DNA from: Candidatus Aenigmarchaeota archaeon LH_S4
Lineage (GTDB): Archaea > Aenigmatarchaeota > Aenigmatarchaeia > QMZS01
Direction: 5' to 3'
DNA length: 48,268 nt
Assembly: GCA_023659975.1 (NCBI GenBank)
Contig: JAGXOI010000001.1
Location: 1 to 48,268 of the forward strand
Below the pieces are notes generated by a model that saw only the letters and a program-made list of their open reading frames with translations, was not told the origin of the DNA and ran no database searches. The position numbers and the translations under genes were made by a program. Shown here one piece after another: positions 635 through 48,145 of this stretch. Each line of letters starts with the position of its first letter. Position 1 is the stretch's first letter.

Positions 635-1900
635 ATGCGCTGGCTGAAAAATTTATTTAAAAAAACTAAAGTTGGGCAGATAAATAAACCAAAAGAAAAA
701 CAGATAGTTAGTTTTGATAAGATTAGTGATTTTCTTGAAGAAGAAACAAAAGAAAAGAAAGCTGAATTTGACTCAAAAATTAAAGAATTTAGATCTCTTT
801 TCATTGATTATTTGAGGAGGCTAAATAAAGAGTTTACAGAACTTGAAACAGCTAAATTTGATAGGATAATCTTAGAAGATAAGAGAGATATTTCAAACAT
901 AATAAAAACCAGTAGGAAAAACTATTGCTACAATTCAAAAAAAATGTTTGTTTTGGCTTTGGACTCTCTACAGAAAGAGAGTGATCCATATCAAATGAAA
1001 TCTATTATTTCGGAACTTTTTGATAGATTGAATAAGTTTTCAAGAGATGCTCAAATTCTTCTGAATCCTTTTCAAAAACAAATGAAAAAAATATCTTCTG
1101 ATCTAAAAAAACTCAGGAAAGAACTTGATGATTTTGACCTCTTTCTTACTGGGGAATATTCACTAATCCAAAAAGAGAAAAAAGCAAGAGAACTCTTAAG
1201 TAAAATAACAAAATATAGATTAGACAATAAACAAAAAGAAGATAAAAAGAAAGAAATTGATGAAAATATAGAAAAATTGAAGAAAGAAATTAAAGAGCAA
1301 AACTCTAAAATTCTGAAAATCCAGAATTCTAATGAAGCCAAAGAACTTAGGAATCTGGAAAAAAAACAAATTTCTCTAGAAAGACAAATAGAAAATATTA
1401 TCTCGGATACAACCTATTCTGTAAATTCGATAAGTAGGCAAATCAGAGAATATCTGTATATCGCCAATAAAAAAGAGAGGGCAGGTATCAAGGCTTTTTT
1501 GGAAAATCCTGAAATTTTACTTGGAAGAGAACAAAGGTTTTTTGAAGAGATTGCGAAGAAAGTAAAAAATAACATAAAAAAGATAGAAAGCAATGAAAGA
1601 AAAAGAAAAAAATTTTTGGAAATTGAAAAGAGGGTTGTACTCTCATTAAATAAAAATAAAAGGGAATACAAAATAATTTCAGATAGATTAAGAGAGAATA
1701 TAAGAAAAATTAAAAAACTGAAACAGGAAATAACCACAGAAAAAGAAGAGCAGGAAATTGCAAAATTAAGAGAACAGATACAACACTTGGAAAAAAATAA
1801 AAAAGAACTTGAATCAGAAGAGGTTAATAGGAAGGGATTATTAGAGGATTTAGAGAAAATACTTTCAGATATTTCTGGGAAAGAAATTAGAACAAAATAG
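635..1900 (+). CDS. Lys/Glu-rich coiled-coil protein, function unknown
   Basis: Long ORF with heptad-like K/E-rich composition. The start is moved to ATG 635 (MRWLKNLFKK) to avoid overlap with rpl21e. Confidence 0.5.
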   Translation: MRWLKNLFKKTKVGQINKPKEKQIVSFDKISDFLEEETKEKKAEFDSKIKEFRSLFIDYLRRLNKEFTELETAKFDRIILEDKRDISNIIKTSRKNYCYNSKKMFVLALDSLQKESDPYQMKSIISELFDRLNKFSRDAQILLNPFQKQMKKISSDLKKLRKELDDFDLFLTGEYSLIQKEKKARELLSKITKYRLDNKQKEDKKKEIDENIEKLKKEIKEQNSKILKIQNSNEAKELRNLEKKQISLERQIENIISDTTYSVNSISRQIREYLYIANKKERAGIKAFLENPEILLGREQRFFEEIAKKVKNNIKKIESNERKRKKFLEIEKRVVLSLNKNKREYKIISDRLRENIRKIKKLKQEITTEKEEQEIAKLREQIQHLEKNKKELESEEVNRKGLLEDLEKILSDISGKEIRTK

Positions 1901-2033
1901 CCCCGCGCGGATTCGAATACCGCCGAACTTCAAAAAGTTCGATCATTTACACTATCTTCGACTTCGTCTCAATAGGCTCTCCGCGGTCTTGAGATCCAGG
2001 GTCTCAAATGCTTGGCCACTACACTACGGGGCT
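1898..2033 (-). tRNA. tRNA-Gln(CUG) with a 63-nt intron in the T-arm (1918-1980, position 53/54)
   Basis: Minus strand reads AGCCCCG TA GTGT AGTGGCCAA GCAT T TGAGA CCCTGGA TCTCA AGAC CGCGG [intron] TTCGAAT CCGCG CGGGGCT A. It has A1:U72, and the cloverleaf closes only after removing the insert. Confidence 0.8.
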
Positions 2034-5630: not shown

Positions 5631-5909
5631 AATATTATTTTTTAAATAAAAGAAAAGAATAAAATTTTTTATGAAAGAAACTATCGGATTTATTTTTTTA
5701 TTGGGATAATTCTTATTTTATCCTCATTGGTTTCTAATTCCGAAGGAAAAGCTAAATTCGCATTTGGTGGTTTTATTGGTCCAATCCCTTTTGGATTTGC
5801 AAATTCTCCTAAGATGCTGAAAATTGTGGTTATAATTTCTGTTATTGCCTTAATTGGTTTTCTCTTACTTCTGTATCGGTAGAATTATTGTTTTGACACT
5901 CTCCCCTCA

Positions 5910-7052
5910 CTAAAATCGGGAGATTCTGAGATCGCACTCTGAACCACAAAAGCTTGCTGACTTCTTTATATCCTCTGCCTCAGTTACGGGCTGTGCCAAA
6001 ACAGCCCCTGATTTAGACATATAGCCTAAACCTCGTTTGCAGATATTTATACTTCCATTTCTATCTGCATTTTCTTCTTTTCTACATTCAGGACACCAAA
6101 ATAATCCTTGAGTTTTTCTTATTCCTTCATTTCCACACTTCCAACACAGTTGAGAAGTATAAGATTCATTTACTTTTACTACTGAAATCCCTTCCCAGTT
6201 TGCTTTGTATTCTATAAATTGTGATAGCTGATAGCTTGGCATAGAGTTCAACTTTCTGTTAAACTTCTTTCCTTTATAGTTTTTGTTATTCTTCTTTCTT
6301 ATTCCATTCTTTCTAATTCCTTTCAAATCACCAATTACTATTGCTGAATTTGTGTTTTTAGCCCAACCCACAACTCTCTTTGCTATTTTGTGCATTTGGT
6401 CTTTTGTTATTCTTTTTTCTTTGCTGTTCTTTATCTTTTTGTAGAAACCCCTGATTTTCTTCCCTGCTAACTTCCCTCTCAAGTGGAAGTAGTGTCCTCT
6501 TGTTTCTCTGATATCCTTCCCATAGAACTTGGTTTTCTTGTTGGAATACTGCACCACGGACGCAATATTTTTTACTCCAAGATCTATAGATAAGGTATCA
6601 GTATAATGAGTCTTTAATTTCTGCTCTTTCTGAACAGTTATGTTTAAGAACCAGTCTTTTTTAGTTTTGATTAATTTTGATTCAGATAATTCATAATCTA
6701 ATAAGTTTTGTTGTTTGTTTGAAAAATTAACCGCAACCCAGATTGATTTGTTATAAACAGGAACTCTTACCCAATATTTAGATAGTTTATTATTTGTTTT
6801 TTTGACCTTAATTAAGTCTTTTCTGATTATCAAAGGTTGCTCTTTTTTAGGATTTGTTCTCTTTGCTAATCTCTCTGCCTGTTGTTTCGTCGCAGAATAG
6901 AGTTTTATATCTTTGTATAATGGAAGAAAATCTAATCCTTTAGAATCTAATTGCAAGAAATCCTGAAAATTAGAATATTCTTTCTCAAGTTTTTCTCTCT
7001 TAATATTAGTTGGTCTAATAATCTTAGTTTGAATTGTTTTTTGTAGTTTCAT
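5910..7052 (-). CDS. tnpB: TnpB (OrfB) RNA-guided nuclease-like transposon protein
   Basis: 380 aa from MKLQKTIQTK. Shows SIDLGVKN (RuvC-I), YTSQLCWKCG...CPEC zinc ribbon and NADRNGSINI (RuvC-III). Paralog at 34229-35365. Confidence 0.85.
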   Translation of the reverse strand: MKLQKTIQTKIIRPTNIKREKLEKEYSNFQDFLQLDSKGLDFLPLYKDIKLYSATKQQAERLAKRTNPKKEQPLIIRKDLIKVKKTNNKLSKYWVRVPVYNKSIWVAVNFSNKQQNLLDYELSESKLIKTKKDWFLNITVQKEQKLKTHYTDTLSIDLGVKNIASVVQYSNKKTKFYGKDIRETRGHYFHLRGKLAGKKIRGFYKKIKNSKEKRITKDQMHKIAKRVVGWAKNTNSAIVIGDLKGIRKNGIRKKNNKNYKGKKFNRKLNSMPSYQLSQFIEYKANWEGISVVKVNESYTSQLCWKCGNEGIRKTQGLFWCPECRKEENADRNGSINICKRGLGYMSKSGAVLAQPVTEAEDIKKSASFCGSECDLRISRF

Positions 7053-7143
7053 AATAATCATATCTTTTACATCTTGGACAACACACAGGTTTTTTAACTC
7101 TTGGTTTCCATTCATAACCACATCTTTTACACTTAATCTTCAT
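7024..7143 (-). CDS. 39-aa zinc-ribbon mini-protein overlapping the tnpB start
   Basis: Manual translation gives MKIKCKRCGYEWKPRVKKPVCCPRCKRYDYYETTKNNSN, with CxxC...CPxC. It lies between the IS left end and tnpB. It is too short for the ORF track. Confidence 0.4.
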   Translation of the reverse strand: MKIKCKRCGYEWKPRVKKPVCCPRCKRYDYYETTKNNSN

Positions 7144-7190
7144 AATAATATTAATAAAAAAACTTTAGTATCCCAATTCATCTACCCTCA

Positions 7191-7622
7191 CTAAAGTTGG
7201 TAGCTTTCTTGGGGCTTTATCTGTAACTTCTGTAATTCAAGTACCTGTTTCTGGATTTCATTCTGTAGTTCTTCCTTCCTCTTTGACACCTGCGAAATTA
7301 CAGATTTAAAATCTTCAGATTTTTTTTCCAAATACTTTTTAACTTCTTCTTTATTCATTTTTACAAAAATTTTTCTGCCAACGTTGACCAAAAAAATATT
7401 ATTGCTTGTAACCTCTGAAGGTACAAAAATTCCTGGACCTAATTGAGAAAAACCCGGGCCTTCCTGGATCTTATCTATCGAATCTTTAAGAGTTAGCGAC
7501 TCATTTAATTCAGAATTTAATAAATTAAATTGGTTAGAAACCTGCTCAAATTCTTTGTTTAGCGATTCAACTTGCGAATATTTCTCTTGTGCTTTCTTCT
7601 TTAATTCTTCTTTCTCAACCAT
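7191..7622 (-). CDS. pfdA: Prefoldin alpha subunit (3' end supplied by the IS left end)
   Basis: Coiled coil, double beta hairpin (IFVPSE...FLVNVGRKIFVKM), coiled coil. The last ~10 codons and the stop lie inside the IS (7191-7222). Confidence 0.75.
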   Translation of the reverse strand: MVEKEELKKKAQEKYSQVESLNKEFEQVSNQFNLLNSELNESLTLKDSIDKIQEGPGFSQLGPGIFVPSEVTSNNIFLVNVGRKIFVKMNKEEVKKYLEKKSEDFKSVISQVSKRKEELQNEIQKQVLELQKLQIKPQESYQL

Positions 7623-22755: not shown

Positions 22756-23172
22756 TTAAATATCACAACTCACAGTTGCTTTATACTCTCTACTTCTCTC
22801 AATTTTGAATTTGTAGTTTGTGATTCCTTTCACAACAGTCCCGCCTTTTTCAGGGGTTATTTTTTCCCCTAAGGCAACAACCTTCCCTTTATATCCTTCT
22901 TCAGATTCCTGAATTTCAACCTCAAATTTACACAGAAAAACTTCGTTTATCTCGCTTTCAGCGAGCAGATTGGAGAGAAAATAGTAAAGAGCATCCTCTA
23001 AATTTTTTCCTTCAAATTCAAATTCTATCTTTTCCTTAGGCTCAATTTTGTCAATTTCACAGATAACAGAAAACAGAGCCTCTGCAGAATTCTCAAACAA
23101 TTCCTCTAAAGTTGACCCATAGGACTCAAATAGCACATCAGAAGTTAAATCCTCAAGAAAGCGGTATTTCAT
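22756..23172 (-). CDS. Archease (activator of RtcB tRNA-splicing ligase)
   Basis: 138 aa. Shows MKYRFLEDLTSDV...LEELFENSAEAL...VKGITNYKFKI...SCDI, the typical archease pattern. Confidence 0.8.
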   Translation of the reverse strand: MKYRFLEDLTSDVLFESYGSTLEELFENSAEALFSVICEIDKIEPKEKIEFEFEGKNLEDALYYFLSNLLAESEINEVFLCKFEVEIQESEEGYKGKVVALGEKITPEKGGTVVKGITNYKFKIERSREYKATVSCDI

Positions 23173-23174
23173 AG

Positions 23175-24002
23175 TTAGATAGTAATTAAAAGAACTTTTG
23201 TCACAGTTGCATAAGTTTTATGTCCAAACTCAAATACAATTTCATCATTTGCTGAAATAGAAGTTGTATCAAAAAATTTATCTATTTCACTAAAAACCAA
23301 TTTAAAATTTCTTTTTAGTTTCCAACTTTCTTCAGGATTTTTTGTATTTAGTAGTATAACAAATAATCGATTATCTGCACCAAATCTTTGTGCCCCTTGA
23401 TTTTCGTACATCCATACTGCCAGATTCTTTGGATTTTCAATTGCTTCTTTCACAGAATAATTTTTTGGTAGGTAAGTAGTTTTTAAATCAAAGGGCTGAT
23501 TTCCAAAGAATATATCTACACCTTTTATACTTTTCAAAGTTGGTATAACTTTTGGATGTTGAGCTATATGCTCCTCAATTAAAACAGTAGTCCAATGATT
23601 ATACCAAGTACAAACAACATAGTTTGTTATTTCATCATGCAGTTTATCTTTTACTTTATTTACAATATCATCATACCTAAAAATTTTCCTTACGTATTCT
23701 GTTTGGATTTTCTGATCAAGTTGACCTTGAATAACACTCCACGAAAAGTTTTCCACCTTAAGAAGTTCATGTTTCAGCTCTTCATCAGAGATTAATTTTT
23801 GACGCGCCAAAACTAAATTTTTATATTGCTTTTTAATAAATAGATTTATCCGTTCATCTGGCACATCCATTAAATTTTTAATCAACTCTGATGAACTGCC
23901 TTTTTGAGGAAACCCCGTTAATTTGGAAAGTTCTTTAAGTTTAGGGGAAAGTATTGATTTTAATTTCAAGTTTTTTAATTCTATCTGACTAACTAAAGGC
24001 AT
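23175..24002 (-). CDS. Putative type II restriction endonuclease (PD-(D/E)XK)
   Basis: It lies 5 nt downstream of the methyltransferase on the same strand. GVDIFFGNQPFDLK fits a D...(D/E)xK catalytic motif. Confidence 0.45.
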   Translation of the reverse strand: MPLVSQIELKNLKLKSILSPKLKELSKLTGFPQKGSSSELIKNLMDVPDERINLFIKKQYKNLVLARQKLISDEELKHELLKVENFSWSVIQGQLDQKIQTEYVRKIFRYDDIVNKVKDKLHDEITNYVVCTWYNHWTTVLIEEHIAQHPKVIPTLKSIKGVDIFFGNQPFDLKTTYLPKNYSVKEAIENPKNLAVWMYENQGAQRFGADNRLFVILLNTKNPEESWKLKRNFKLVFSEIDKFFDTTSISANDEIVFEFGHKTYATVTKVLLITI

Positions 24003-24007
24003 TTTAT

Positions 24008-25216
24008 TTACCTTTTTTTGTTTTTCTTAAACAACATAATATATTCATGTTTAAAAATATAGAATCCCCCTACCAAAGCACGATAACGCCATAGTTCCTT
24101 CTGATTTCTTTTACTTCTAGTCTCTTCAAAGTTTTTTACAATTATACTTTTTAATAGATAACCCCTTTTTAAAACTTCCTGCATTGTTAAAAATCCTAGA
24201 GGTATCCATTCTCCTTGTGAATATTTATCACCGATGATAAGAGCGAAATATCTACCATTTTCCAATAAATCATAAGTATTATCCACAACTTCGCCAAACA
24301 TTTTTAAAAATTTAGAAACTGATTGTGCATTTGAAAGGTCATTAAAATTTTGACTGAATTTTATAATATCATGATATGGTGGATGCATTATCAATAACTG
24401 AACTTTGTTTATATTTAACCCTTCAAAAATTTCCTTCCTATTTATCTTTTTGCTATCTCCAACGATAACCTTTGTAATTACCTTATTCAGATTTTTCTCT
24501 TTTTCAATAAATTTTTTTGCCTCGTCTGCAACAGTAGGATTCAATTCAATACCTAACCCATTTCTTCCCAACTTTTTAGATTCAATTAATGTTGTACCAC
24601 TACCAACAAAAGCATCCAAAACCCAATCTCCTTTTTTTGTGTACCTTAACATCATTTGGCGAGGAATTTGTGGAACAAAATTACCCCAATACCAACCCAA
24701 ATGTGCTCCAGAAGTATCTCTTTTATCTAAAACCCACAAACTATCTGTAAGTATATTTTCATATTCTTTCCATCTATTTAAATTTATATCATTGATTTTA
24801 CTGGTTTTAACCTCACTAATTTGTTTATTTAATCTATTTAAATAATATTTTGCTCTCTCTAGAGTTAGCGCTTCTTCAATCTGTGATAAATTATCTAATA
24901 AAATTTTTTCATCAATTTTTATTGTATCTCCATTATGTATTATGTTCAAAATACCAAATTTATCTAATTTTGGATAATTGATAATCTTTTTTATTTCTCT
25001 AATTTTCTGTCTTAAAGAAGTTATATCTGTCATTTGCTCAAGTTCTGCTATTCTTTTTATAATATACTCTTTGTTGAGTATTATAACCTTTTTTTCCAGC
25101 CCAAAATCTTTTAAAATTGCGGTTGAAATTCCAACCTCTCTTTCTCTTCTTGCCAAATCATCCAGTTCAGAAAAATCATCTAATTCTTTATCCAAATTAT
25201 CAAAATCAATTGCCAT
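24008..25216 (-). CDS. DNA methyltransferase (N6-A/N4-C type)
   Basis: AdoMet motif DAFVGSGTTLIE and catalytic (D/N/S)PPY-like motif MHPPYHD. The start is set at MAIDFDNL (25216). Confidence 0.75.
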   Translation of the reverse strand: MAIDFDNLDKELDDFSELDDLARREREVGISTAILKDFGLEKKVIILNKEYIIKRIAELEQMTDITSLRQKIREIKKIINYPKLDKFGILNIIHNGDTIKIDEKILLDNLSQIEEALTLERAKYYLNRLNKQISEVKTSKINDINLNRWKEYENILTDSLWVLDKRDTSGAHLGWYWGNFVPQIPRQMMLRYTKKGDWVLDAFVGSGTTLIESKKLGRNGLGIELNPTVADEAKKFIEKEKNLNKVITKVIVGDSKKINRKEIFEGLNINKVQLLIMHPPYHDIIKFSQNFNDLSNAQSVSKFLKMFGEVVDNTYDLLENGRYFALIIGDKYSQGEWIPLGFLTMQEVLKRGYLLKSIIVKNFEETRSKRNQKELWRYRALVGGFYIFKHEYIMLFKKNKKR

Positions 25217-25241
25217 AATTGTAAATAAAATAAATAAACTT

Positions 25242-26336
25242 ATGGAACTTCTCAAAAAATACAAACCAAAAAAAATTGAAGAATTTATTGGAAACAAGAG
25301 AGCAATAGAAGAAAGTCTGAAAAATTTCGGGAAAAAACCATTGCTTTTTTCTGGGGATCCAGGGGTTGGAAAAACTCTTTTATCTTATCTTATTGCAAAA
25401 AAACTCAACCTTGAAACTTATGAGATAAATGCTTCTGATTATAGGGATTTGGAAAGCCTTAAAAAAGTTTTGTTGATTTCAAAACAATATTCCCTACTTG
25501 GAAAGAAAAGAGTTATTCTAATTGATGAAATTGATGGTCTGTCTGTACAGGATAGGAGGGCAACAACAGAACTAATAAAAATTTTCAAGGAAAGCAAAAA
25601 TCCTATTGTATTAACTGCAAACAATGCCTATTCCCCAAAGTTAAGGAGTCTAAGATCCTACTGTAAATTAATTTCCTTCAGCAAGATTCCTTACCCATCT
25701 ATTACTAAATATTTGAGAGAAATCTGTAGACAGGAAAATTTAGACTATGAAGAATCCACTTTGAAAAATATTGCACAGAGATGTAACGGGGATGTAAGAG
25801 CAGCACTTCTTGATTTGAAAAGTTTAATTAAGGAAAACAAACTACTTCGGTCAGAAATACTTTCCCCAAGAGATTTTGAAGAGAACATTTTCAATTCAGT
25901 TCGTATAATTCTGAAAACAAAAAAAATAGAAGTAGCAAGGGATGTAATGAAAAATCTGGACAGAAATCCTGAAGATTTTTTCTGGTGGATTGAGGAAAAT
26001 GTTACAAGAGAATATAAAGGGAAGGATTTAAAAAATGGTTTGGATTTTTTAAGTCTAGCAGATATTTTCAGAAGAAGGATAATAAAAAGACAGGACTGGA
26101 TTCTGCTCAGATATTATGCAGATTTTATATCAATAGGGATTGCACTGGCAAAAAAGGAAACTTATTATAAATATGTTCCTTATGGATTTCCAACTTTTAT
26201 TTCAAAGATGAGTATGATGAAATCAAAGAAAAAAGAACTGGGAGAAAAAATTGGAAAACTGCAGGAAAAAATGCATTGCTCAAGGAGAATTATAAAAGAA
26301 GAATTACCTTATTTAGAACAGTTTTTAGATTTGTGA
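25242..26336 (+). CDS. rfcL: Replication factor C large subunit
   Basis: MELLKKYKPKKIEEFIGN..., Walker A GDPGVGKT, DEIDG, and the NGDVRAAL sensor. The track ORF start at 24978 is an antisense read-through of the methyltransferase gene. Confidence 0.8.
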   Translation: MELLKKYKPKKIEEFIGNKRAIEESLKNFGKKPLLFSGDPGVGKTLLSYLIAKKLNLETYEINASDYRDLESLKKVLLISKQYSLLGKKRVILIDEIDGLSVQDRRATTELIKIFKESKNPIVLTANNAYSPKLRSLRSYCKLISFSKIPYPSITKYLREICRQENLDYEESTLKNIAQRCNGDVRAALLDLKSLIKENKLLRSEILSPRDFEENIFNSVRIILKTKKIEVARDVMKNLDRNPEDFFWWIEENVTREYKGKDLKNGLDFLSLADIFRRRIIKRQDWILLRYYADFISIGIALAKKETYYKYVPYGFPTFISKMSMMKSKKKELGEKIGKLQEKMHCSRRIIKEELPYLEQFLDL

Positions 26337-26532: not shown

Positions 26533-26607
26533 GTGTCGCAAGTGAAACTGCTAATTTTATCACTTTCGCAGTCTCGCCTTGCGAGTCAACCTTTTTTAAA
26601 GGCTGAC
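26533..26607 (-). ncRNA. Structured hairpin RNA module, copy A (23S 3' trailer)
   Basis: Minus strand reads GTCAGCCTTTAAAAAAGGTTGAC then TCGCAAGGCGAGACTGC-GAAAGTGATAAAATTA-GCAGTTTCACTTGCGA. It is homologous to 30466-30523 and 44601-44669. Confidence 0.5.
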
Positions 26608-26631
26608 AAGGAATAGAGTATCTATTTGTTG

Positions 26632-29705
<3,074 letters not shown>

Positions 29706-29902
29706 GCAACAAATAGATAATACTCTCCTTACACCTATTTTAATCATTGAGTACGAATAGATACTCTTTAGAAGATTTCTTAATATCAATAAGAAACCTT
29801 TCAACATAATATGATATAAAAGTTATATATAAGAAACCTTCACTAAAAACTTAGTTAATAATATCTAATATTGATAGATATTTACAGAATTAAACTAAAA
29901 TT

Positions 29903-30349
29903 ATGCAAGAGGTAATAGATAAAATCTGGAAAGAAACAACTCATTTTGGGAGCCTATGGTTTTATTCTTTTCTTGTTGCTTTGATGTTTATTCTTGGAGA
30001 AAAAATTTTATCTTTTCAATTGTTGGTAGGATTTGTTTTATCCTATCTAATTATAGTGTGTATAAGAGTAGTATATTATAAAGAAAGACCCAATAAACAA
30101 ACCTACAAAAGGTTTATTGAAAAAATATATGTCTCTTCATTTCCAAGTTTACATTCTATTAGAGGTGCAATGCTCTTTATATTTTTCTCACTCTATTACA
30201 ATACTTTATTAGTTTCCTTACTATTTCTTATTTTATCTCTTACAATTTTCGCGAGCAGATATTTCCTGAAAAAACATTATGTTTCAGATATTGTAGCAGG
30301 AGCAATAATTGGATTTCTATTATCTTATGGAATTATTTTGATTATTTAA
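29903..30349 (+). CDS. PAP2-family membrane phosphatase (polyprenyl-diphosphate phosphatase-like)
   Basis: Motifs KERP, PSLHS and SRYFLKKHYVSD, matching KxxxxxxRP / PSGH / SRxxxxxHxxxD. Four to five TM helices. Confidence 0.75.
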   Translation: MQEVIDKIWKETTHFGSLWFYSFLVALMFILGEKILSFQLLVGFVLSYLIIVCIRVVYYKERPNKQTYKRFIEKIYVSSFPSLHSIRGAMLFIFFSLYYNTLLVSLLFLILSLTIFASRYFLKKHYVSDIVAGAIIGFLLSYGIILII

Positions 30350-30412: not shown

Positions 30413-30753
30413 TGGACCTGGAGGGATTTCCAGAACCTTTTGATAACCAATATCCCTGTTTGGAGTGTCGCAAGGTGAAACAGCCAATTTTATCACTTTC
30501 GGTTTCGCAGTCTCACCTTGCAATTTGGCCCTTGCTAACCCATTTCATATTTGGGGTGCAGACCTTTTCATTTACTGCACCGAAAAGGGTTGCTTTTTAA
30601 AGGCTGACTTTGAACCCTCGGCCTCCGCCTGTTTTGGCTTGAGTTTTTAAAAGTCACACTTGCAAAGGCGGCATTCTACCAATTGCTCAAAACTACAATT
30701 TGAAAGCCTACCAAACTATTTTTTGTGTTGTAGTTTTACTGAACTACAGGCCC
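30413..30753 (-). tRNA. tRNA-Ala(UGC) with three introns: D-loop 30684-30738, anticodon 30630-30659, T-loop 30427-30608
   Basis: GGGCCTG TA GTTC AG[55 nt]ATTGGTA GAAT G CCGCC TTTGCAA [30 nt] GGCGG AGGCC GAGGG TTCAAA[182 nt]T CCCTC CAGGTCC A. The G3:U70 alanine identity pair is present. The gene is 341 nt for a 74-nt tRNA. Confidence 0.8.
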
Positions 30754-31320
30754 ATAAACTAATAATTATCTTAATTATAATTTCTCAATAACAAATAACT
30801 ATATGAAACAATAGATTCAACTTTAGGAATTCCAGTAGAATAGAAGTTTAAGCTACCTTAATTTTTTATTTATTAAGGTGATCCAGCCGCACGTTCCCGT
30901 ACGGCTACCTTGTTACAACTTAGCCCTCCTTACAAAATCCAAGGTTGATTCTCCAAAAATTGAAGAAGCTCCCTTAAGACTCTATTCAGATGGCTTGATG
31001 GGCAGTGTGTGCAAGGAGCAGGGATAAATTCATCGAACGATAATGACGTTCGATTACTAGGGATTCCGTCGTCACAGGGGCAAGTTTCAGCCCCCGATCT
31101 GAACTAGGGTTGAGTTTAGGGATTAGCTTTCTCTTTCGAGATTGCAACTCTCTGTCTCAACCATTGTTGCGCGCGTGTAGCCCAAGAAGTTCGGGCCGTA
31201 CCGACCTGCCGTCGCCCACTCCTTCCTCCTGTTTACACAGGCAGTTCTTTTAGAGTACTCTGCTAAAGCAGATCGCAACTAAAAATGTGGATCTCGCTCG
31301 TTGCCAGACTTAACTGGACA

Positions 31321-31359
31321 TTTTTGTTGAGGTTATTAGGTTTTTACTTCCTAAAAAAC
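31321..31359 (-). other. ~39-nt AT-rich hairpin insertion in 16S (helix 35-37 region)
   Basis: GTGTTGT-ATGG[GTTTTTTAGGAAGTAAAAACCTAATAACCTCAACAAAAA]TGTCCAGTTAAGTCTGGCAACGAGCGAGA. Bacterial and archaeal consensus has only ~4 nt here. Confidence 0.5.
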
Positions 31360-31503
31360 CCATACAACACGAGCTGACGACGGCCATGCAACTCCTCTCA
31401 GCTAGTCTGGTAAGCTCTTTAGACTGACCTTCATCCAGCTGTCTTCCTTGGTAAGATTCTCGGTGTTGAGTCCAATTAAACCGCACACTGCACCCCTTAT
31501 GTA

Positions 31504-31546
<43 letters not shown>

Positions 31547-31647
31547 CCCCAGGTGGCCCGCTTAATGGTTTCCCTTCGAAACTGGCTAGTTCCTACAAAC
31601 CAGCCAACATCAAGCGGGCATCGTTTACAGCTAGGACTACCCGGGTA

Positions 31648-31706
31648 CTTAGGAACCTCTCTTTAATTAATATTTTTTAAATATTCATCTTTAGAAAAAG
31701 GTTCAA
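31648..31706 (-). other. 59-nt intron in the 16S 790 loop
   Basis: The universally conserved GGATTAGATACCCGGGTAGTCC is split as GGATTAGA[59 nt]TACCCGGGTAGTCC. The insert is AT-rich with terminal complementarity GAACCT...AGGTTC. Confidence 0.8.
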
Positions 31707-32648
31707 TCTAATCCGGATTGCTCCCCTAGCTTTCATCCCTCACCGTCAGAGTTATTCTAGTTAGATGCCTTCGCCATCGGTGGTCCCCTTAGGATCAAAG
31801 GATTTCACCCCTACCCCAAGAGTACCTCTAACCTCTCCTAATCTCTAGTCTAACAGTATTTCTAGCATTTTCTTGGTTAACAAGAAATTTAACCAGAAAC
31901 TTGCTAGACCGGCTACGGATGCTTTAAACCCAATAAAAGTGGTCACTACTTGTGGCTCGGGTATTACCGCGGCGGCTGCCACCCGTATTACCCACCACTT
32001 ATTCGATAAGCTTTTTTAACTTAACAAAAGTTATTCCTTTGTGGAATAACACTTAGAGTCCCCCTATCGCACTTAAGTGCATGGTAAAGGTTTCGCGCCT
32101 GCTGCACTCCGTAGGGCCTGGATTCTTGTCTCAGAATCCATCTCCGGGCTATTGCTCTCACAACCCGTACTAATTATCGGCTTGTCGGGCTTTTACCCCA
32201 ACAACAACCTAATCAGATATAATCCTATCCTTAGTTCAGATAGATTCTTTCCAGAACTCCTATCCTATCTTCTTTTATCCTCAGTTTCCCGAGATTATAG
32301 AAGTTCTAAGGGTAAGTTAATTATACTTTACTGAGCCGTTCGCACTTCAAAACCGAAGTTCCAAAGTACTTGCATGGCTTAGTCGAACTCTAATAGCAGT
32401 GACCTCCGGCAGGATCAACCGGAATTATAGCAGGGATTTGCTCCTTACTTATATACTCCTTCTATTCTACTTTGAAAGACTAAACTTATTTAATTTCAAA
32501 GTTTAATAATCTATTTCATTAGATTACTTCATTGCCTTTAAAGACTCTTCATAATAGTAAATATATAAAATTTAAATATAACCTAATTAGTTGTAAAAAT
32601 GTAATTTATAAGTATTTTATCCTTTTATATATTAAATAAAATTAAATT

Positions 32649-34228: not shown

Positions 34229-35365
34229 TTAAAATCGGGAGATTCTGAGATCGCACTCTGAACCACAAAAGCTTGCTGACTTCTTTATGTCCTCTGCCTC
34301 AGTTACGGGCTGTGCCAAAACAGCCCCTAGTTTAGACATATAGCCTAAACCTCGTTTGCAGATATTTATACTCCCATTTCTATCTGCATTTTCTTCTTCT
34401 TTACATTCAGGACACCAGAATAAACCTTGAGTTTTTCTAACTCCTTCATTTCCACACTTCCAACACAGTTGAGAAGTATAAGCTTCATTTACTTTGATTA
34501 CTGAAATTCCCTCCCAGTTCGCTTTGTATTCTATAAATTGAGATAGTTGATAGTTTGGCATAGAGTTCAACTTTCTGTTAAACTTCTTTCCTTTATAGTT
34601 TTTGTTATTCTTCTTTCTTGCTCCATTCTTTCTAATTCCTTTCAAATCACCAATTACTATTGCCGAATTTGTGTTTTTAGCCCAATCTATAATATCCTTT
34701 GCTGTCTTATGTACTTGATCTTTGGTTATTCTTTTTTCTTTATTGTTCTTTATTTTTTTGTAGAAACCTCTGATTTTCTTCCTTGCTAACTTCCCTCTCA
34801 AGTGGAAGTAGTGTCCTCTTGTTTCTCTGATATCCTTCCCATAGAACTTGGTTTTCTTGTTGGAATACTGCACCACGGACGCAATATTTTTTACTCCAAG
34901 ATCTATAGATAAGGTATCAGTATAATTTGTTTTTAATTCCTGTTCTTTTTGAACAGTTATATTTAAGAACCAGTCTTTTTTACCTTTGATTAACTTTGAT
35001 TCAGATGATTCATAATTCAATAAATCTTGTTGTTTGTTAGAAAAATTGATTGCAACCCAAATTGATTTATTATAAACAGGAACTCTTACCCAATATTTAG
35101 ATAGCTTGTTATCTGTTTTCTTAACTTTAATACAATCCTTCCTGATTATCAAAGGTTGTTCTTTTTTAGGTTTTGTTCTTTTTGCTAATCTTTCTACCTG
35201 TTGTTTTGTTGCTGAATAGAGTTTTATATCTTTGTATAATGGAAGAAAATCTACATCCTGCATTTTTAGGATACCCTGAAAATTAGAATATTCTCTCTCA
35301 AGTTTTTCTCTCTTAATATTGGTTGGTCTAATAATCTTGGTTTGAATTGTTTTTTGTAGTTTCAT
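34229..35365 (-). CDS. tnpB: TnpB (OrfB), copy 2
   Basis: 378 aa from MKLQKTIQTK. Near-identical to 5910-7052, with the same RuvC and zinc-ribbon motifs. Confidence 0.85.
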   Translation of the reverse strand: MKLQKTIQTKIIRPTNIKREKLEREYSNFQGILKMQDVDFLPLYKDIKLYSATKQQVERLAKRTKPKKEQPLIIRKDCIKVKKTDNKLSKYWVRVPVYNKSIWVAINFSNKQQDLLNYESSESKLIKGKKDWFLNITVQKEQELKTNYTDTLSIDLGVKNIASVVQYSNKKTKFYGKDIRETRGHYFHLRGKLARKKIRGFYKKIKNNKEKRITKDQVHKTAKDIIDWAKNTNSAIVIGDLKGIRKNGARKKNNKNYKGKKFNRKLNSMPNYQLSQFIEYKANWEGISVIKVNEAYTSQLCWKCGNEGVRKTQGLFWCPECKEEENADRNGSINICKRGLGYMSKLGAVLAQPVTEAEDIKKSASFCGSECDLRISRF

Positions 35366-35477
35366 AATTCTCAAGTAGTTTTCTGACAATATCCTCAAAT
35401 GTCTCTCCTTTCTTTCCCAATTTCTTTAACATATTATAGGTTGATTTCTTTAATTGTATAGTTGTTATAGTCACCAT
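35328..35477 (-). CDS. 49-aa antitoxin-like mini-protein overlapping the tnpB start
   Basis: Manual translation gives MVTITTIQLKKSTYNMLKKLGKKGETFEDIVRKLLENYETTKNNSNQDY. The pattern I.L...T...L..L...GE(S/T)F.D.I..LL resembles small archaeal putative antitoxins. Confidence 0.4.
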   Translation of the reverse strand: MVTITTIQLKKSTYNMLKKLGKKGETFEDIVRKLLENYETTKNNSNQDY

Positions 35478-35756: not shown

Positions 35757-38700
35757 TTACTTCACTCCTTTGATATATCCTTTAAACCAATTTAGCCACC
35801 TGTTGTAAATTTCCTTTGAATCCAAAGCACCTGATTCTTTTCTAACTTCTTCAGAGAAAGTATGAAACATAGAATTTGAGAGGATAACATTACTTGCTTC
35901 CATGATACTAGGTTTCTTTGTTTCAACTGCAGTTTTTACAATTGTATCAAGAATATCTGCTCTTAGCTTGATATTACTCCAGACAGCATCCCAATCTCCT
36001 CTCCATTCTTTAACATTTTTTGCAATAGAATTTATTATTTCACTCTCACCAGCTAAAAGAGTTGGGGTTGGCTCTAGCTCATCTTTTTTAGCATTATATT
36101 CAAGCAAATTAACAAAACCTTTTTCTTCTGCAGGATCTTTTTTCCAGTGTTTCCTAATTTCTGTAAATTCAACTGTTCTTCTAAAAGAATGTAGTCCATC
36201 AGCACTTTTTAAGGTATTGTTTATAAGTATCAGGTCTGTTGCTTTGAAACTTGTAGGGGGGACCCCCAAATCATTTACAACTCTATCAAATAAACCATAA
36301 GCACTTTCTCCATGTATAGTTCCTGCAACAACATTAGCCATTGCACCAATCCTCATTGCCTCATAAAGAGCCAAAGCTTCCTTGCTTCTTACTTCACCAA
36401 TTATCAGACAAGAATCTCCTAACCTTAAGGATACTCTCAAAACTTCTTCGGCAGGCAGTTCAGTTTCAACCATTGTAATCACTGATCTTGATTTTAATCT
36501 TGTTATATTATATCCAATTTCCCTAAATTTTTTTAAGGGTAATTCAAGAGTATTATGAGCCAAGATATTTTCACACACAAAATTCTCATTCTCAGGAACA
36601 GAAAAATCATAAACATATATCTCTGATTTTACTTTTTTTACACTAACAACTCTATCCCAAAAAATATCTGAATATGCTAATTGTTTTAGAAAAGTATATA
36701 GTTTATTTTTATCTGGTATTTTAGGGATTAATTTTTTCAAATATTCTCTTCCAATATTATTTCTCCTCTTTATATAATCATTTTTATTAAAATCTTTACA
36801 TACCCGGGCCATTTCTTTTTTTAGTTCTATAGACAAGGGTATTATATCTGCAGAGTCATTTGTAGATATTTTGGAGCAGAGCTTCTTAAGTTTTTTTCTT
36901 TTCTTTTCTATAAGTATTCCAATTTTCTCCCTAAAATTTTTCTGGGATTTTAAGCTGGAAATATCTGCATTAAATGTTCCGTCTTTTCTTCGGTTATTGC
37001 TTTTCCTGAGAATTATATCGTAATCCAGAAGTAAGGTTTGCAAGTCATATAATAGTTTTTCTGAAGTTAGAGGGATTACAATTTCTTTTTCACTCACACA
37101 CCCGTCTCCGGAGAATATTCCCCTCAAAACAAAAGATATCTGCTCTTTAGATAAATTATATATCCATTCAGGGACTTCTTTGGTATAAGCATTACCCTTT
37201 AAATTTAATACATCCTGCATAACTATTTTGAGTATATCCGAAGAGATTATTGAGGTAAAAGTATCAGAATGCATCTTAACCCTAAGATCAAGCTTTTTTG
37301 CCACGCTTCTTACAACTCTTCTTAATTCTTCTTCAACCACTGAAATTAGAACACTCCGCTTATCATAGCACCCATCTGCTATCCATAGTCCAATAAAGGT
37401 TAAAAAATCTTCATTCAGGGATATTTTTGTTGGTATGGGTTGGCCCCCACTCCTGGGTTTAATTTTGATATTTTTGAAATCAAAACTTTTTTTGTTTAAT
37501 TTTACAAAAACTTTCACAGGCAAAATACCTTTTCTTTTCCAATAGGAGCATAGTTTTTCAGAGTAACCCAACTTCCTCGAGACTTTCTTTATTTCTGTCC
37601 CCTGCTCTTTTATTAACCCCTGGATTTCTTTTCCCTTCAGATAGAAATTTTTTAATTTTTCTAAGTGTTCCAACAGATTTACTGAGTCTTTCCTTCTGTT
37701 GTTTACCCTAAATATTCTTGGAACTACAATAAAATTACCTTCTTCTAAGTCTCTAACCCTAATTTCTTCCAAAATTCTTTTGTTACCTATAGAAAAAAGG
37801 GAGTGGTCACCAGTTACTTTTATCTTCCGACCAGTTGATGTTAAAATTTCATAAATGTCTTTATTTGTCTTGTGTCTGATAAAAGAACTCACTTTTTTAA
37901 ATTCTATTTTACCTTCTTTATTAATTGAGCAAATTTCTATTTCATCTTTTATATCTGTTGCTCTGACAATATTTCTTTCATTCTCTATTCCTGGTTTATA
38001 GTTCTTAATTAGCTCATCTATCAAATTACCAATCTTTGTCTTCTCAATTTTCCTGTTTCTTTTAATCAGGATTATAGAATCTCCTGTGACACTATCCTCA
38101 ACCGAAATAATCCTTTTATTTTTCATTATTTGTGAGATTAGAGCACCTAATAAACTTGTTTTTCCTGAACTTCTTGTTCCACCAACCAACATAGATCTTC
38201 CACCATCTATTATAAACCAAAGCAGTCCACCAGCAAGAGGATTTAGCATTTTTTGGGAGATAAAGAGAGGGAAGGTCCAAGGTTTTTCCCTGTGCCTTCT
38301 CAAAGCAAAACCAAGACCTTCCGGGGATAAAGTCTGCATTATTGCACAAACTCTCGCCCTCCCACCAGGAACAGAAATTTCAGTATCCAAAACAGGGTTT
38401 GCTTCATCCAAAGGTCTTCCCGAACTTAACCTCAATCTTGTTGCTAACAATTCTGCATCCTCTTTTGTTTGAGTTATGTTTGTCTGACATTCACCATATT
38501 TCCCATGATAAAGGTAAGTTGGTGCAGAGCTTGGGGGTGAGTTGACATAGACATCCTGAACATTATCATCAGACAAAAGTAATTCCAGAATCCCGATTCC
38601 AGCAGTATATCTAACAAGAATATTTGAAATAATTTTTAGTTTTTCTTCTGGGATATTAGATGAACCTGAAAGATCTCTTAACATATCAAGACCAATATTA

Positions 38701-39539
38701 TAAAAACTTTTTCTCACTTCTTTTGAAGCAAATTCTTCTCTTTCCAGGGGTCTATGCCTTGCCATATATCTCTTTGCCTTGTCAAGTAGCTCATATTCTT
38801 TTTCTTCTAAACCAAATTCTAGCGGAATAATATGATACAAAGTTCTTATTTCATTTGGTATTTTATAAATCTCAACTTTTGCATCCTGGATTTGATAATT
38901 GTCAATTAGTTCTGCTTTTTCTGGGGGGGTTGCCTGATATTTTGTGTAAGTGAAATTTGGTCTGACAGAGGGAATAAAAAACTGCCTGTAAACTGACCGG
39001 TCTCCAACTTTATATCCGGGCAAAAATCCAAGACTTTTCTTTATTAATGTTGTTTCCTCTAATAACTCTTTTAGGGGAATTAGTGAATTGTTAAGATAAT
39101 GTTCATAACATTCCTTGCAGATTCCTTTTGTCCTCTCACCCAAAACCTTTGTGTGTCTTATTCTTCTTACTAGTAGAACGTACGCACCTACAGGGTCAGT
39201 CTTTAATTTTCCCAGAATTGTATTTTGCAAAAAATCCATTCTTTTAGAAACACACCGGTCACACTTTTCTATAACCAGATTTTTTTTGGAAAACAATTTT
39301 AGATCCCTTGTTATCTTTTCATAAAGTTTGGCAATTTCAAGCAGCATCTGTGTCTGCTCAAAGTTGTATTCATACTCTCTCTCTTTTGATAAAACAATTG
39401 ATTTGGCATCTTTAACAGCAATTAAATAGTTTATAATCTCCGACATACATTCAGGAAAATCCTCTACTGAAGAGCCGTATATACAGTTTAAGCAATCTAC
39501 TTTTAAAACACCATCTTTATAAGTGTATTTTCCAGGCAT
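35757..39539 (-). CDS. Type IV pilus/archaellum-type (GspE/VirB11/FlaI family) secretion ATPase containing an intein
   Basis: Walker A GGTRSSGKTS. The Asp-box RIISVED | TLEL is split by the intein. The C-terminal part has GEVRSKEA and the His-box region. Confidence 0.8.
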   Translation of the reverse strand: MPGKYTYKDGVLKVDCLNCIYGSSVEDFPECMSEIINYLIAVKDAKSIVLSKEREYEYNFEQTQMLLEIAKLYEKITRDLKLFSKKNLVIEKCDRCVSKRMDFLQNTILGKLKTDPVGAYVLLVRRIRHTKVLGERTKGICKECYEHYLNNSLIPLKELLEETTLIKKSLGFLPGYKVGDRSVYRQFFIPSVRPNFTYTKYQATPPEKAELIDNYQIQDAKVEIYKIPNEIRTLYHIIPLEFGLEEKEYELLDKAKRYMARHRPLEREEFASKEVRKSFYNIGLDMLRDLSGSSNIPEEKLKIISNILVRYTAGIGILELLLSDDNVQDVYVNSPPSSAPTYLYHGKYGECQTNITQTKEDAELLATRLRLSSGRPLDEANPVLDTEISVPGGRARVCAIMQTLSPEGLGFALRRHREKPWTFPLFISQKMLNPLAGGLLWFIIDGGRSMLVGGTRSSGKTSLLGALISQIMKNKRIISVEDSVTGDSIILIKRNRKIEKTKIGNLIDELIKNYKPGIENERNIVRATDIKDEIEICSINKEGKIEFKKVSSFIRHKTNKDIYEILTSTGRKIKVTGDHSLFSIGNKRILEEIRVRDLEEGNFIVVPRIFRVNNRRKDSVNLLEHLEKLKNFYLKGKEIQGLIKEQGTEIKKVSRKLGYSEKLCSYWKRKGILPVKVFVKLNKKSFDFKNIKIKPRSGGQPIPTKISLNEDFLTFIGLWIADGCYDKRSVLISVVEEELRRVVRSVAKKLDLRVKMHSDTFTSIISSDILKIVMQDVLNLKGNAYTKEVPEWIYNLSKEQISFVLRGIFSGDGCVSEKEIVIPLTSEKLLYDLQTLLLDYDIILRKSNNRRKDGTFNADISSLKSQKNFREKIGILIEKKRKKLKKLCSKISTNDSADIIPLSIELKKEMARVCKDFNKNDYIKRRNNIGREYLKKLIPKIPDKNKLYTFLKQLAYSDIFWDRVVSVKKVKSEIYVYDFSVPENENFVCENILAHNTLELPLKKFREIGYNITRLKSRSVITMVETELPAEEVLRVSLRLGDSCLIIGEVRSKEALALYEAMRIGAMANVVAGTIHGESAYGLFDRVVNDLGVPPTSFKATDLILINNTLKSADGLHSFRRTVEFTEIRKHWKKDPAEEKGFVNLLEYNAKKDELEPTPTLLAGESEIINSIAKNVKEWRGDWDAVWSNIKLRADILDTIVKTAVETKKPSIMEASNVILSNSMFHTFSEEVRKESGALDSKEIYNRWLNWFKGYIKGVK
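36552..38093 (-). other. 514-aa intein with LAGLIDADG homing endonuclease domain
   Basis: It starts SVTGDSIIL (Ser1), has block B VTGDHS, LAGLIDADG motifs FIGLWIADGCY and LRGIFSGDGCV, and ends ...ENILAHN followed by +1 Thr. Removal restores ISVED-TLEL. Confidence 0.85.
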
Positions 39540-39576: not shown

Positions 39577-40692
<1,116 letters not shown>

Positions 40693-41239: not shown

Positions 41240-41437
41240 TGCGGGAGGGGAGATTCCCGAAACTTGTTTTCTTTGAAGTGTTGGACTTTCTTTTTTTAAA
41301 AAGAAAAGCCTTATTCGAACTCCCGAACCGACTTACGGACAGAGTCCTAGGCCCTGCGCCTTTTTATGTAAACTTCTTCTTTTTGACCTAAAAGTTTTTC
41401 TTGAAAGAAAAAGCCTTGACCACTTGGCTACCCCCAC
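41240..41437 (-). tRNA. tRNA-Leu(UAG), type II, with two introns: D-arm ~41358-41415 (55 nt, junction ambiguous) and T-loop 41254-41313 (60 nt)
   Basis: GTGGGGG TA GCC AAGTGGTCAA GGC[intron]G CAGGG CCTAGGA CTCTG TCCGTAAGTCGGTTC GGGAG TTCGAA[intron]T CTCCC CTCCCGC A. Confidence 0.75.
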
Positions 41438-42265: not shown

Positions 42266-42537
42266 GTGAAGCAAAAAATTTTTGGGGGCTAATTGATTAT
42301 CCAGTTACAACAGAGAAAGCTGTCAGAATTGTTGAAGATGAAAACAAATTAACCTTTCAGTTAAAAAAGTTGAAGACAACCAGAGAAGAAATCAAGAAAA
42401 ATTTTGAGGAAGAATTTAAAGTAAAAGTAGAAAAAGTAAATGTCTTGATAAACAGAAAGGGAAAAAAGAAAATTATAGTTAAATTAAAACCAAAGTTCTC
42501 TGCTGGGGATATTGGAGTTAAATTAGGAATTATTTAG
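42262..42537 (+). CDS. rpl23: 50S ribosomal protein L23 (uL23)
   Basis: 91 aa, YPVTTEKAVRIVEDENKLTFQL..., with a 4-nt overlap with rpl4. Confidence 0.85.
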   Translation: MSEAKNFWGLIDYPVTTEKAVRIVEDENKLTFQLKKLKTTREEIKKNFEEEFKVKVEKVNVLINRKGKKKIIVKLKPKFSAGDIGVKLGII

Positions 42538-42542
42538 AATTT
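42496..42542 (+). repeat. Direct repeat DR1 (3' end of rpl23), identical to 43760-43806
   Basis: The two sites share 47 identical nt: ttctctgctggggatattggagttaaattaggaattatttagaattt. Confidence 0.85.
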
Positions 42543-43717: not shown

Positions 43718-43806
43718 TTTAATAACAAGAAAAGAGTAATAATCAAACTCAAACCAGAATTCTCTGCTGGGGATATTGGAGTTAAATTAGGAATTATTTA
43801 GAATTT
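43718..43806 (+). pseudogene. Relic copy of the rpl23 3' end (contains DR2 43760-43806)
   Basis: It translates as FNNKKRVIIKLKPEFSAGDIGVKLGII*, compared with genuine INRKGKKKIIVKLKPKFSAGDIGVKLGII*. The last 47 nt are identical and the upstream part is diverged. Confidence 0.7.
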
Positions 43807-44523: not shown

Positions 44524-44798
44524 TGAGCCTGGGAGGATTTTCAAATTTTGTTTCTTTTTATCTTGAGTGACTTCATTCATTTTTGCATAGCAAAAATGAT
44601 GCACCGTTTTCTGAAAGAAAACGAGTGTTTTGTCACTTTGCTCCAATGCTCGTCTTTCAAACGGCACCCATTTTGCTCTGCAAAATCAGGAACCTCAACT
44701 AAAAAAGAAAAGCCTTACTTGAACCCCCAACACCTGGATCCGAAGTCCAGTGCTCTATCCAATTGCCCAAAACTGCAGTTTTATTGAGCTACAGGCCC
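44524..44798 (-). tRNA. tRNA-Arg(UCG) with two introns: D-loop 44764-44783 (20 nt) and T-loop 44539-44718 (180 nt)
   Basis: GGGCCTG TA GCTC AA[TAAAACTGCAGTTTTGGGCA]ATTGGATA GAGC A CTGGA CTTCGGA TCCAG GTGTT GGGGG TTCAA[180 nt]AT CCTCC CAGGCTC A. Confidence 0.75.
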
Positions 44799-44856
44799 AT
44801 AACTTAAGATTGTTTTCTAAAAAACTTAACCCAAAAACATATTTTAACTTAGAATT

Positions 44857-46932: not shown

Positions 46933-47084
46933 GGCCGGAAGTGGGACTCGATTATACTAACCTTTTTATTATATAAAAAGATTTACCCACCCTAAGGGAT
47001 TTCCATGAACATGACTAAATAGGCTCTCCACAGTCCCCTATGCTAACCTTATAGAGCCAGAAGCTTAACTACACTATCCCGGCC
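46933..47084 (-). tRNA. tRNA-His(GUG) with three introns: D-loop 47049-47067, anticodon 47001-47027, T-loop 46952-46984
   Basis: G(-1) GCCGGGA TA GTGT AGT[19]GGTTA GCAT A GGGGA CTGTGG[27]A TCCCT TAGG GTGGG T[33]TCGAGT CCCAC TTCCGGC C. The encoded G-1:C73 pair is the hallmark of tRNA-His. Confidence 0.8.
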
Positions 47085-47162
47085 ATAAAAATACTTAAAT
47101 TATTTTACTCTTTATTTTTGTAGTTTAGTTTTATCCAATCCACCACCCACACAAATCCCCTT

Positions 47163-48046: not shown

Positions 48047-48079
48047 ACCATGTTTTTCAGGATTGTTTTTTGTTTTTTC

Positions 48080-48145
48080 ATAATTAACCAGAAGGCAAGG
48101 AAACTACCGATTTCAATCGTATAGAGGAATTGCCTTAAATAGTTT
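48080..48145 (-). repeat. Solo nested-hairpin element related to the IS left end (inverted partner of 75-142)
   Basis: The reverse complement reads aaactatttaaggcaattcctctatacgattgaaatcggtagtttccttgccttctggttaattat. Confidence 0.6.

Follow-up and report, generated by a model that had tools for sequence, protein, structure and literature searches.

Five interrupted tRNA genes of an Aenigmatarchaeota genome carry 11 putative introns, mostly with bulge-helix-bulge motifs

Introns of archaeal tRNA precursors are excised at a bulge-helix-bulge structure (BHB motif), where EndA, the splicing endonuclease, cleaves both bulges and the ligase RtcB, together with archease, ligates the exons (PMC4090602, PMC4033280, PMC12397907). 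Genes with several such introns, to a reported maximum of three, are known from Thermoproteales, ARMAN-1/2 and a small number of other archaea, and in certain archaeal genomes over half of all tRNA genes are multiply interrupted (PMC4033280). Here, we analyze a stretch of 48,268 nucleotides (nt) of Candidatus Aenigmarchaeota archaeon LH_S4 (contig JAGXOI010000001.1; hereafter the window), in which five tRNA genes, for His, Arg, Leu, Ala and Gln, contain 11 inserts. An earlier note on this DNA, made from the letters alone, had described these genes and likened them to the multi-intron tRNAs of Thermoproteales and ARMAN, which are indeed those described in PMC4033280. The window represents this known type, not a new mechanism, in a lineage for which our literature search for tRNA introns in Aenigmatarchaeota found no earlier description.

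In Thermoproteales (Pyrobaculum, Thermofilum, Caldivirga; PMC4033280, citing Sugahara 2007-2009 and Fujishima 2010), as in the window, up to three introns with BHB or relaxed motifs lie in the D-, anticodon and T-arms of a single gene, the majority of the tRNA genes is affected, and similar introns recur in different tRNA species, which is credited to transposition. The window differs in its lineage (DPANN/Aenigmatarchaeota, not TACK), its small, AT-rich genome (33% GC), a strong preference for T-loop position 59/60 and D-loop positions 15/16-17/18, and introns made of nested hairpin modules, and up to four introns occur in tRNA-Leu of its relatives, with three as the highest number reported. 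EndA of Thermoproteales is an (alpha-beta)2 enzyme with a Crenarchaea-specific loop. ARMAN-1/2 (Ca. Micrarchaeum; PMC3239211, PMC3488258, PMC12397907) are likewise ultrasmall DPANN archaea with non-canonical and multiple tRNA introns, some of them with bulge-helix-loop or hBH motifs, which are cut by an epsilon2 EndA; they belong, however, to a different phylum, and the density in the window, 2.2 introns per gene, appears high in comparison. BHB, EndA and ligase are likewise required by the split and permuted tRNA genes of Nanoarchaeum equitans, Caldivirga and Thermofilum (PMC3218864); in the window, however, the exons of all five genes are colinear inside single loci of 136-341 nt, and no trans-splicing or permutation is needed. 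Finally, the study of Kaneta et al. 2018 (PMC5829648) reports more tRNA disruption in several DPANN lineages and takes incomplete DPANN tRNA sets to point to unidentified disrupted genes. The window is such a case, with zero tRNAs found by standard tools. In the passages of that study consulted, the four DPANN genomes newly added are a Pacearchaeota, a Woesearchaeota, a Nanohaloarchaea and a Ca. Mancarchaeum genome, and Aenigmatarchaeota figure only within the DPANN acronym; relative to that study, the exon-intron maps, the intron families and the rRNA mini-introns presented here are new.

On the whole window, neither ARAGORN, with or without its canonical-intron mode, nor Rfam, at the gathering score or at E<=10, reported a tRNA, and the intron mode of ARAGORN with lowered thresholds gave only spurious matches in coding regions. 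We then scanned for a T-stem combined with a 7-bp acceptor stem that has U8, R9 and G10 after it, and this led to five loci in non-coding DNA, each of them on the minus strand (Table 1). The stricter scan returned just these five, whereas a looser scan for TTAT plus an acceptor stem, aimed at additional tRNA genes, yielded noise only. Deletion of the 11 inserts, which span 18-182 nt, leaves five sequences of 73-85 nt, each called by ARAGORN at default thresholds: His(GTG), Arg(TCG), Leu(TAG), Ala(TGC) and Gln(CTG). These products keep G53:C61, the T-loop TTCRANT and G18G19, and the identity elements named in the earlier note are present in the sequence (G3:U70 in Ala, an encoded G-1 opposite C73 in His and A1:U72 in Gln). 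The gene models of that note also hold in other respects: the scan returned identical coordinates for tRNA-His, removal of all 11 introns from the five genes restores tRNAs, the intron positions agree in each gene (Gln 1, Ala 3, Leu 2, Arg 2, His 3), and only two of the 11, in His and Ala, occupy the canonical site 37/38. Its description of the density, 100% of the genes seen, as extreme fared less well. All genes found are interrupted in the window (5/5) and in LH_S6 (3/3; Gln, the same gene as in the window, Ala-GGC and Ile-GAT), but this does not extend across the clade, since the metagenome-assembled genome (MAG) B34_G15, a more distant member with a lysyl-tRNA synthetase (LysRS) 85% identical to that of the window, has an intact tRNA-Ser(CGA). 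The figure is a small-sample statement. At E<=10, Rfam found no tRNA, intron or small-RNA family at the tRNA loci or intron modules; group I and group II introns likewise gave no signal, which excludes the self-splicing class by this criterion.

Table 1 Coordinates of the interrupted RNA genes, their putative introns and other features of the window. BHB values are base pairs in the outer/central/inner helix.
Feature	Position	Strand	Remarks
tRNA-His(GTG)	46933..47084	minus	G-1 = 47084, C73 = 46933; encoded G-1
tRNA-His exons	47084-47067, 47048-47028, 47000-46985, 46951-46933	minus	
His intron 1, D-loop 17/18, 18 nt	47049..47066	minus	strict BHB 4/4/4
His intron 2, canonical 37/38, 27 nt	47001..47027	minus	strict BHB 7/4/4
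His intron 3, T-loop 54/55, 33 nt	46952..46984	minus	no recognisable BHB (1 bp, 3 of 4, 0)
tRNA-Arg(TCG)	44524..44798	minus	acceptor scan, and ARAGORN after splicing
Arg intron 1, D-loop 15/16, 21 nt	44763..44783	minus	strict BHB 2/4/5
Arg intron 2, T-loop 59/60, 180 nt	44538..44717	minus	strict BHB 5/4/2; T-stem is outer helix
tRNA-Leu(TAG)	41240..41437	minus	long variable arm; C32-C33 in anticodon loop
Leu intron 1, D-arm, 55 nt	41358..41412	minus	no BHB in any register
Leu intron 2, T-loop 59/60, 60 nt	41254..41313	minus	strict BHB 5/4/3
tRNA-Ala(TGC)	30413..30753	minus	in 16S-23S spacer; G3:U70
Ala intron 1, D-loop 15/16, 56 nt	30683..30738	minus	strict BHB 2/4/10; resembles Arg intron 1
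Ala intron 2, canonical 37/38, 30 nt	30631..30660	minus	strict BHB 5/4/2
Ala intron 3, T-loop 59/60, 182 nt	30427..30608	minus	outer and central helices only (5/4/0)
tRNA-Gln(CTG)	1898..2033	minus	A1:U72; C32-C33
Gln intron, T-arm 53/54, 63 nt	1918..1980	minus	G+C-rich central helix CCGC:GCGG; 2/4/0, no inner helix
16S rRNA gene	30873-32425	minus	Rfam
16S mini-intron, 59 nt	31647..31705	minus	BHB-like, central 4 bp, inner 10 bp
16S mini-intron, 39 nt	31324..31362	minus	BHB-like, central 4 bp, inner 5 bp
23S rRNA gene	26621-29717	minus	Rfam
23S domain V mini-intron, 135 nt	27029..27163	minus	BHB-like 2/4/1
Archease (RtcB RNA ligase cofactor)	22756..23172	minus	Pfam PF01951 3e-31; NCBIfam 4.8e-28
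275-aa open reading frame and N6/N4 DNA methylase	23175-25297	minus	directly upstream of archease
PAP2-family membrane phosphatase open reading frame	29903-30349	plus	within 1.15-kb 16S-23S spacer
Type II/IV secretion-family ATPase gene	35757-39539	minus	split by intein with LAGLIDADG endonuclease domain
SepCysS	39577-40680	minus	NCBIfam 3e-160
Two TnpB (Cas12f-like/OrfB) elements	5893-7221 and 34229-35398 (plus flanks)		~95% identical to each other

Choosing deletions because they yield a tRNA is circular; therefore, we relied on two independent tests, the BHB geometry at the junctions and the comparison with relatives. The geometry of the BHB was modelled on the canonical case: four exon nucleotides directly before the 5' bulge form pairs with as many intron nucleotides directly before the 3' bulge, and on either strand the cut follows the second nucleotide of the bulge. 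Each junction defined by the cloverleaf was scored in all sequence-equivalent registers, so that a prediction was obtained at every junction, as the earlier note had proposed: seven are strict, two have outer and central helices and two have no BHB. The strict form, hBHBh', is found at His 17/18 and 37/38, Arg 15/16 and 59/60, Leu 59/60, and Ala 15/16 and 37/38. Nine junctions thus bear a BHB, and at each of them just one of the equivalent registers fits, namely that which yields the cloverleaf. Of 9368 decoy junction pairs near the same sites, 10 were strict (0.1%) and 0.6% relaxed, and seven strict motifs at 11 junctions against this rate correspond to P ~ 1e-15. Nine of the 11 introns end in AA. 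At 37/38 and 59/60, the intron separates the sixth from the seventh position of a 7-nt loop on a 5-bp stem, so that the anticodon stem or the T-stem itself forms the outer helix, and at 15/16 the 3' end of the intron pairs with the 5' D-stem strand to give the central helix. Minimum-free-energy folding of entire precursors proved too noisy for classifying junctions. Judging from this predicted geometry, membership of the inserts among the archaeal EndA-spliced introns is supported at nine of the 11 junctions.

The window is AT-rich (32.7% GC) and archaeal, and for its LysRS, L4 and DHH proteins the closest relatives all come from MAGs of Candidatus Aenigmatarchaeota. Nearest is Ca. Aenigmarchaeota LH_S6 (JAGXOK01), with 96% protein identity and 96.4-97.8% nucleotide identity across 7.7 kb. 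In a syntenic tRNA-His of a relative (locus L001), the D-loop is uninterrupted and reads GTGTAGTTGGTAGCAT exactly at the site of the 18-nt insert of the window, while another relative (L003) has 117 nt inserted there. For the Arg gene, which lies upstream of LysRS, nine orthologues were found (L002-L006, L097, L098, L113 and, not syntenic, L026). Four of these (L002, L004, L097, L098) have the contiguous D-loop GCTCAAYTGGATAGAGC, which equals the predicted splice product; the remaining ones have a D-loop intron of differing length and sequence, and the exons are nearly invariant in all nine. Overall, exons are near-identical among genomes whose LysRS proteins are merely 66-85% identical, whereas the introns vary in length and sequence. 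Position 53/54 of tRNA-Gln is interrupted in four of four relatives (L173-L176). Between LH_S6 (L173 5646-5787) and the window (1918-1980), the exons and ~90 nt of flanks of this gene are 100% identical and the intron interior is a different sequence, which on sequence comparison is a case of strain-level turnover between genomes ~97% identical in nucleotides. Ten further tRNA genes of relatives became ARAGORN-positive once spliced, nearly all of their introns having a 4/4 central helix, and an independent Logan contig (L063) contains the His and Arg loci base for base as in the window.

Orthologues of tRNA-Leu were found at L097, L098, L100 and L101. In three of them the tRNA-Leu(TAG) gene holds four inserts (L097 2687-2917, L098 2688-2917 and L100 2735-2942, minus strand), located in the D-loop, as an 11-nt bulge-helix-loop, at 37/38, in the loop of the variable arm and at 59/60; ARAGORN calls the spliced product as Leu(TAG), and the variable-arm junction has a relaxed motif only.

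Taken together, we consider it about 90% probable that the window contains five functional, colinear tRNA genes, each with one to three protein-spliced introns of the archaeal BHB type. That the genes would be functional and not decayed copies had been proposed in the earlier note, and the BHB geometry at nine of 11 junctions and the conserved exons and divergent introns of relatives argue for it. Several observations weigh against this interpretation. At His 54/55 no BHB exists in any equivalent register, the best having 1 bp, 3 of 4 and 0; the Leu D-arm insert has at most three of four central pairs in any register, with flanking helices absent; and the inner helix is missing from the motifs at Ala 59/60 and Gln 53/54. 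Intron-less orthologues confirm only two of the 11 junctions, the others being backed by exon conservation and BHB geometry. C33 in tRNA-Gln and tRNA-Leu could hint at impaired function, although an independent genome has it in tRNA-Gln as well. Moreover, neither EndA nor RtcB was found among the open reading frames (ORFs) of the window, and tblastn with an EndA sequence of M. jannaschii gave no match in the loci of relatives, where RtcB was not searched for.

The two junctions without a motif give rise to the strongest alternative, a mixed case, which we regard as improbable. Here, nine inserts would be spliced by EndA and those at His 54/55 and in the Leu D-arm would not be removed by it, so that the two genes would either be inactive, with functional copies elsewhere, or depend on a different or stepwise route, for instance refolding once the other introns are out. 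Besides the missing BHB in any register, the minimum-free-energy folds show no bulge geometry at either junction. In relatives, the T-loop intron of tRNA-His lies at 59/60, where it has a good BHB, and not, as in the window, at 54/55, and their D-loop intron of tRNA-Leu is the 11-nt bulge-helix-loop, to which the version in the window is no longer similar. Yet the exons of both genes are intact, their spliced products are normal cloverleaves, and the His locus is the same in the independent Logan contig. In addition, broad-specificity EndAs are reported to cleave relaxed bulge-helix-loop substrates (PMC4033280, PMC12397907), and a single tRNA gene serves most anticodons in archaea (PMC4307357). 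From context only, we infer that the two inserts belong to the BHB class as well.

Owing to a repeated AAGGC, the position of the Leu D-arm junction is ambiguous across 6 nt and may shift by up to 5 nt, as far as 41363-41417. For this insert and that at His 54/55, two-step or alternative BHBs were tried, and none yields the correct product. The tRNA-His precursor can also form a strong 14-bp BHB-shaped pairing (5/4/5) of 47042-47058 with 46945-46961, which joins the 3' end of the D-loop intron and G18-C23 to the 3' end of the T-loop intron and the T-loop. The cuts predicted for this pairing follow G18 and U55 and would give no tRNA, and it may be a folding intermediate or a chance pairing.

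Far less probable is that the loci are pseudogenes, that is, tRNAs disrupted by small mobile repeats resembling miniature inverted-repeat transposable elements, with functional uninterrupted copies elsewhere. Such an origin would fit modules common to several loci, one of them also outside a tRNA, 3' of the 23S gene (see below), two TnpB elements active in the genome, and the replaced interior of the Gln intron between near-identical genomes. However, the exons are perfectly maintained across species while the inserts diverge, and no decay is seen: they are 100% identical to those of LH_S6 and near-identical where the proteins are 66-85% identical. The inserts lie in BHB registers far above chance, many genomes are interrupted in the same genes at the same sites, the identity elements are intact, and no uninterrupted tRNA was found in the 48 kb or in the LH_S6 loci. 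An assembly or chimeric artefact of the metagenome bin can practically be dismissed, as the His and Arg region is identical in the independent Logan assembly, LH_S6 has the same Gln structure and the pattern is consistent in more than 10 MAGs. BHB geometry and relatives together thus make both of these explanations very unlikely.

If the inserts are BHB introns, each tRNA precursor would be transcribed whole, and at each junction the exon would pair with the 3' part of the intron to form a 4-bp helix between two 3-nt bulges. EndA would then cleave each strand after the second bulge nucleotide, and RtcB would ligate the exons, with stimulation by the archease that the window encodes. This archease had been placed at its present coordinates by the earlier note, and the Pfam match secures it. 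Splicing by EndA and RtcB/archease at these loci is suggested by analogy with the described systems. The relaxed junctions, above all His 54/55 and the Leu D-arm, would presumably need a broad-specificity EndA; relaxed and BHB-less junctions thus call for such an enzyme or for ordered refolding, which is the weakest link of the model. The 275-aa ORF upstream of archease was considered as an EndA candidate and rejected, as it has no family or PDB match and adjoins a DNA methylase. Owing to this neighbor, a restriction enzyme is more likely, and the pair probably serves restriction-modification and not RNA processing.

Both rRNA genes are interrupted as well. Alignment to the Rfam models located extra segments of 137 nt in domain V of the 23S rRNA and of 61 and 41 nt in the 16S rRNA, each bounded by a BHB-like motif whose cuts excise 135, 59 and 39 nt, respectively. 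Excision would exactly restore universal sequences at all three sites (a slash marks the junction): ...ACAU/AUCGACGG in the 23S rRNA (also written ACAU/AUCGACGGGG), GGAUUAGAU/ACCCGGGUAG at the 59-nt intron (also written GGAUUAGAU/ACCCGGGUAGUCC) and GUGUUGUA/AAAUGUCC at the 39-nt intron. None of these mini-introns carries an ORF. Thus, together with the five tRNA genes, seven of seven stable-RNA genes of the window are interrupted, with 14 inserts altogether. The rRNA genes of Thermoproteales also bear BHB introns, as in the window.

Related introns occur in different tRNA species and at different positions, as in transposing families. AGAGCCTATT opens both the His 37/38 and the Gln 53/54 intron, TAAGGCTTTTCTTTTT opens both the Leu 59/60 and the Arg 59/60 intron, and the 15/16 introns of Ala and Arg are similar (repeat family D20). 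A two-stem module, GCAACCC..GGTGCA..TGCACCCCAAA, is shared by Ala 59/60 of the window, Ala(GGC) 59/60 of LH_S6, His 37/38 and 59/60 at L003 and Arg 59/60 at L004, and the 23S intron (repeat family D16) contains, in tandem, two copies of a hairpin-plus-CAGCCAAAA module with kin in the 59/60 tRNA introns of relatives. The Ala 59/60 intron is ~95-97% identical to the Ala(GGC) intron of LH_S6 apart from a 62-nt insertion (~30462-30523), and a related copy of this ~62-nt hairpin element, without an Rfam match, lies just 3' of the 23S gene (26533-26600). We also considered this insertion as an intron within an intron, but there is no BHB at its borders; it is therefore an insertion or a hairpin expansion and not a demonstrable nested intron. 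An exact 18-mer scan of a genome contig collection, in which the source genome of the window is not represented, with one intron module hit two Aenigmatarchaeota genomes only, the rest being chance bacterial matches, and a gapped-pattern scan of metagenome contigs returned five matches, all of them by chance in unrelated DNA of higher GC content.

Intron transposition has been proposed for Thermoproteales (PMC4033280), and the shared modules of the window fit that picture; judging from their sequences, the introns may have spread by transposition or gene conversion of such modules. A further and more tentative idea, to which we assign a minority chance, is that the lineage hosts an actively mobile, modular BHB intron family that colonises tRNA and rRNA genes. 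This would be consistent with the replaced Gln interior, modules nested in intron loops, four introns per tRNA and at least two BHB-less junctions.

Several further observations concern the tRNA genes. The anticodon loops read CC-CTG-GA in Gln (~1999-2000) and CC-TAG-GA in Leu (~41349-41350), with C33 in place of the near-universal U33. C33 recurs in Gln of LH_S6 (L173), an independent genome, and in tRNA-Gly(CCC) of LH_S7 (L101 176-340), whereas more distant relatives have U33. Directly 5' of the mature end (-4 to -1), TTAT is present in 26 of 26 tRNA genes of the clade, five in the window and 21 in relatives (e.g., 47085-47088 and 44799-44802); it stands before G-1 in tRNA-His and is also found at the intact tRNA-Ser. 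It could mark a leaderless transcription start, as in Nanoarchaeum, or act as an RNase P determinant. A TATA box at fixed distance upstream of the tRNAs was not resolvable in the AT-rich flanks.

Other genes of the window encode a class I LysRS, archease, FtsZ, a class V fructose-bisphosphatase, SepCysS, two TnpB and an intein-bearing ATPase. As SepCysS is encoded, the indirect Sep-tRNA route probably supplies Cys-tRNA. The PAP2-family ORF runs antisense to the rRNA operon and adjoins tRNA-Ala. The first TnpB element is absent from the LH_S6 genome and is therefore a recent insertion. A 66-nt inverted repeat occupies both window ends (88-153 and 48069-48134), and an 80-nt direct repeat, 86% identical, occurs at the 3' end of one ORF (42463-42542) and in the intergenic region upstream of another (43727-43806).

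For annotation, these genes explain seemingly incomplete tRNA sets in DPANN bins, as tRNA finders report zero where 48 kb contain five. They extend a heavy intron load on stable-RNA genes to a phylum for which the literature searched holds no such description. With presence and absence, turnover and shared modules documented in several genomes, the co-evolution of EndA specificity and intron spread becomes testable outside Thermoproteales, and the BHB-less junctions are ready substrates for probing the limits of EndA recognition. Should the introns indeed form an actively mobile family, this would imply an EndA substrate range beyond that of any characterised type, or an extra splicing route.

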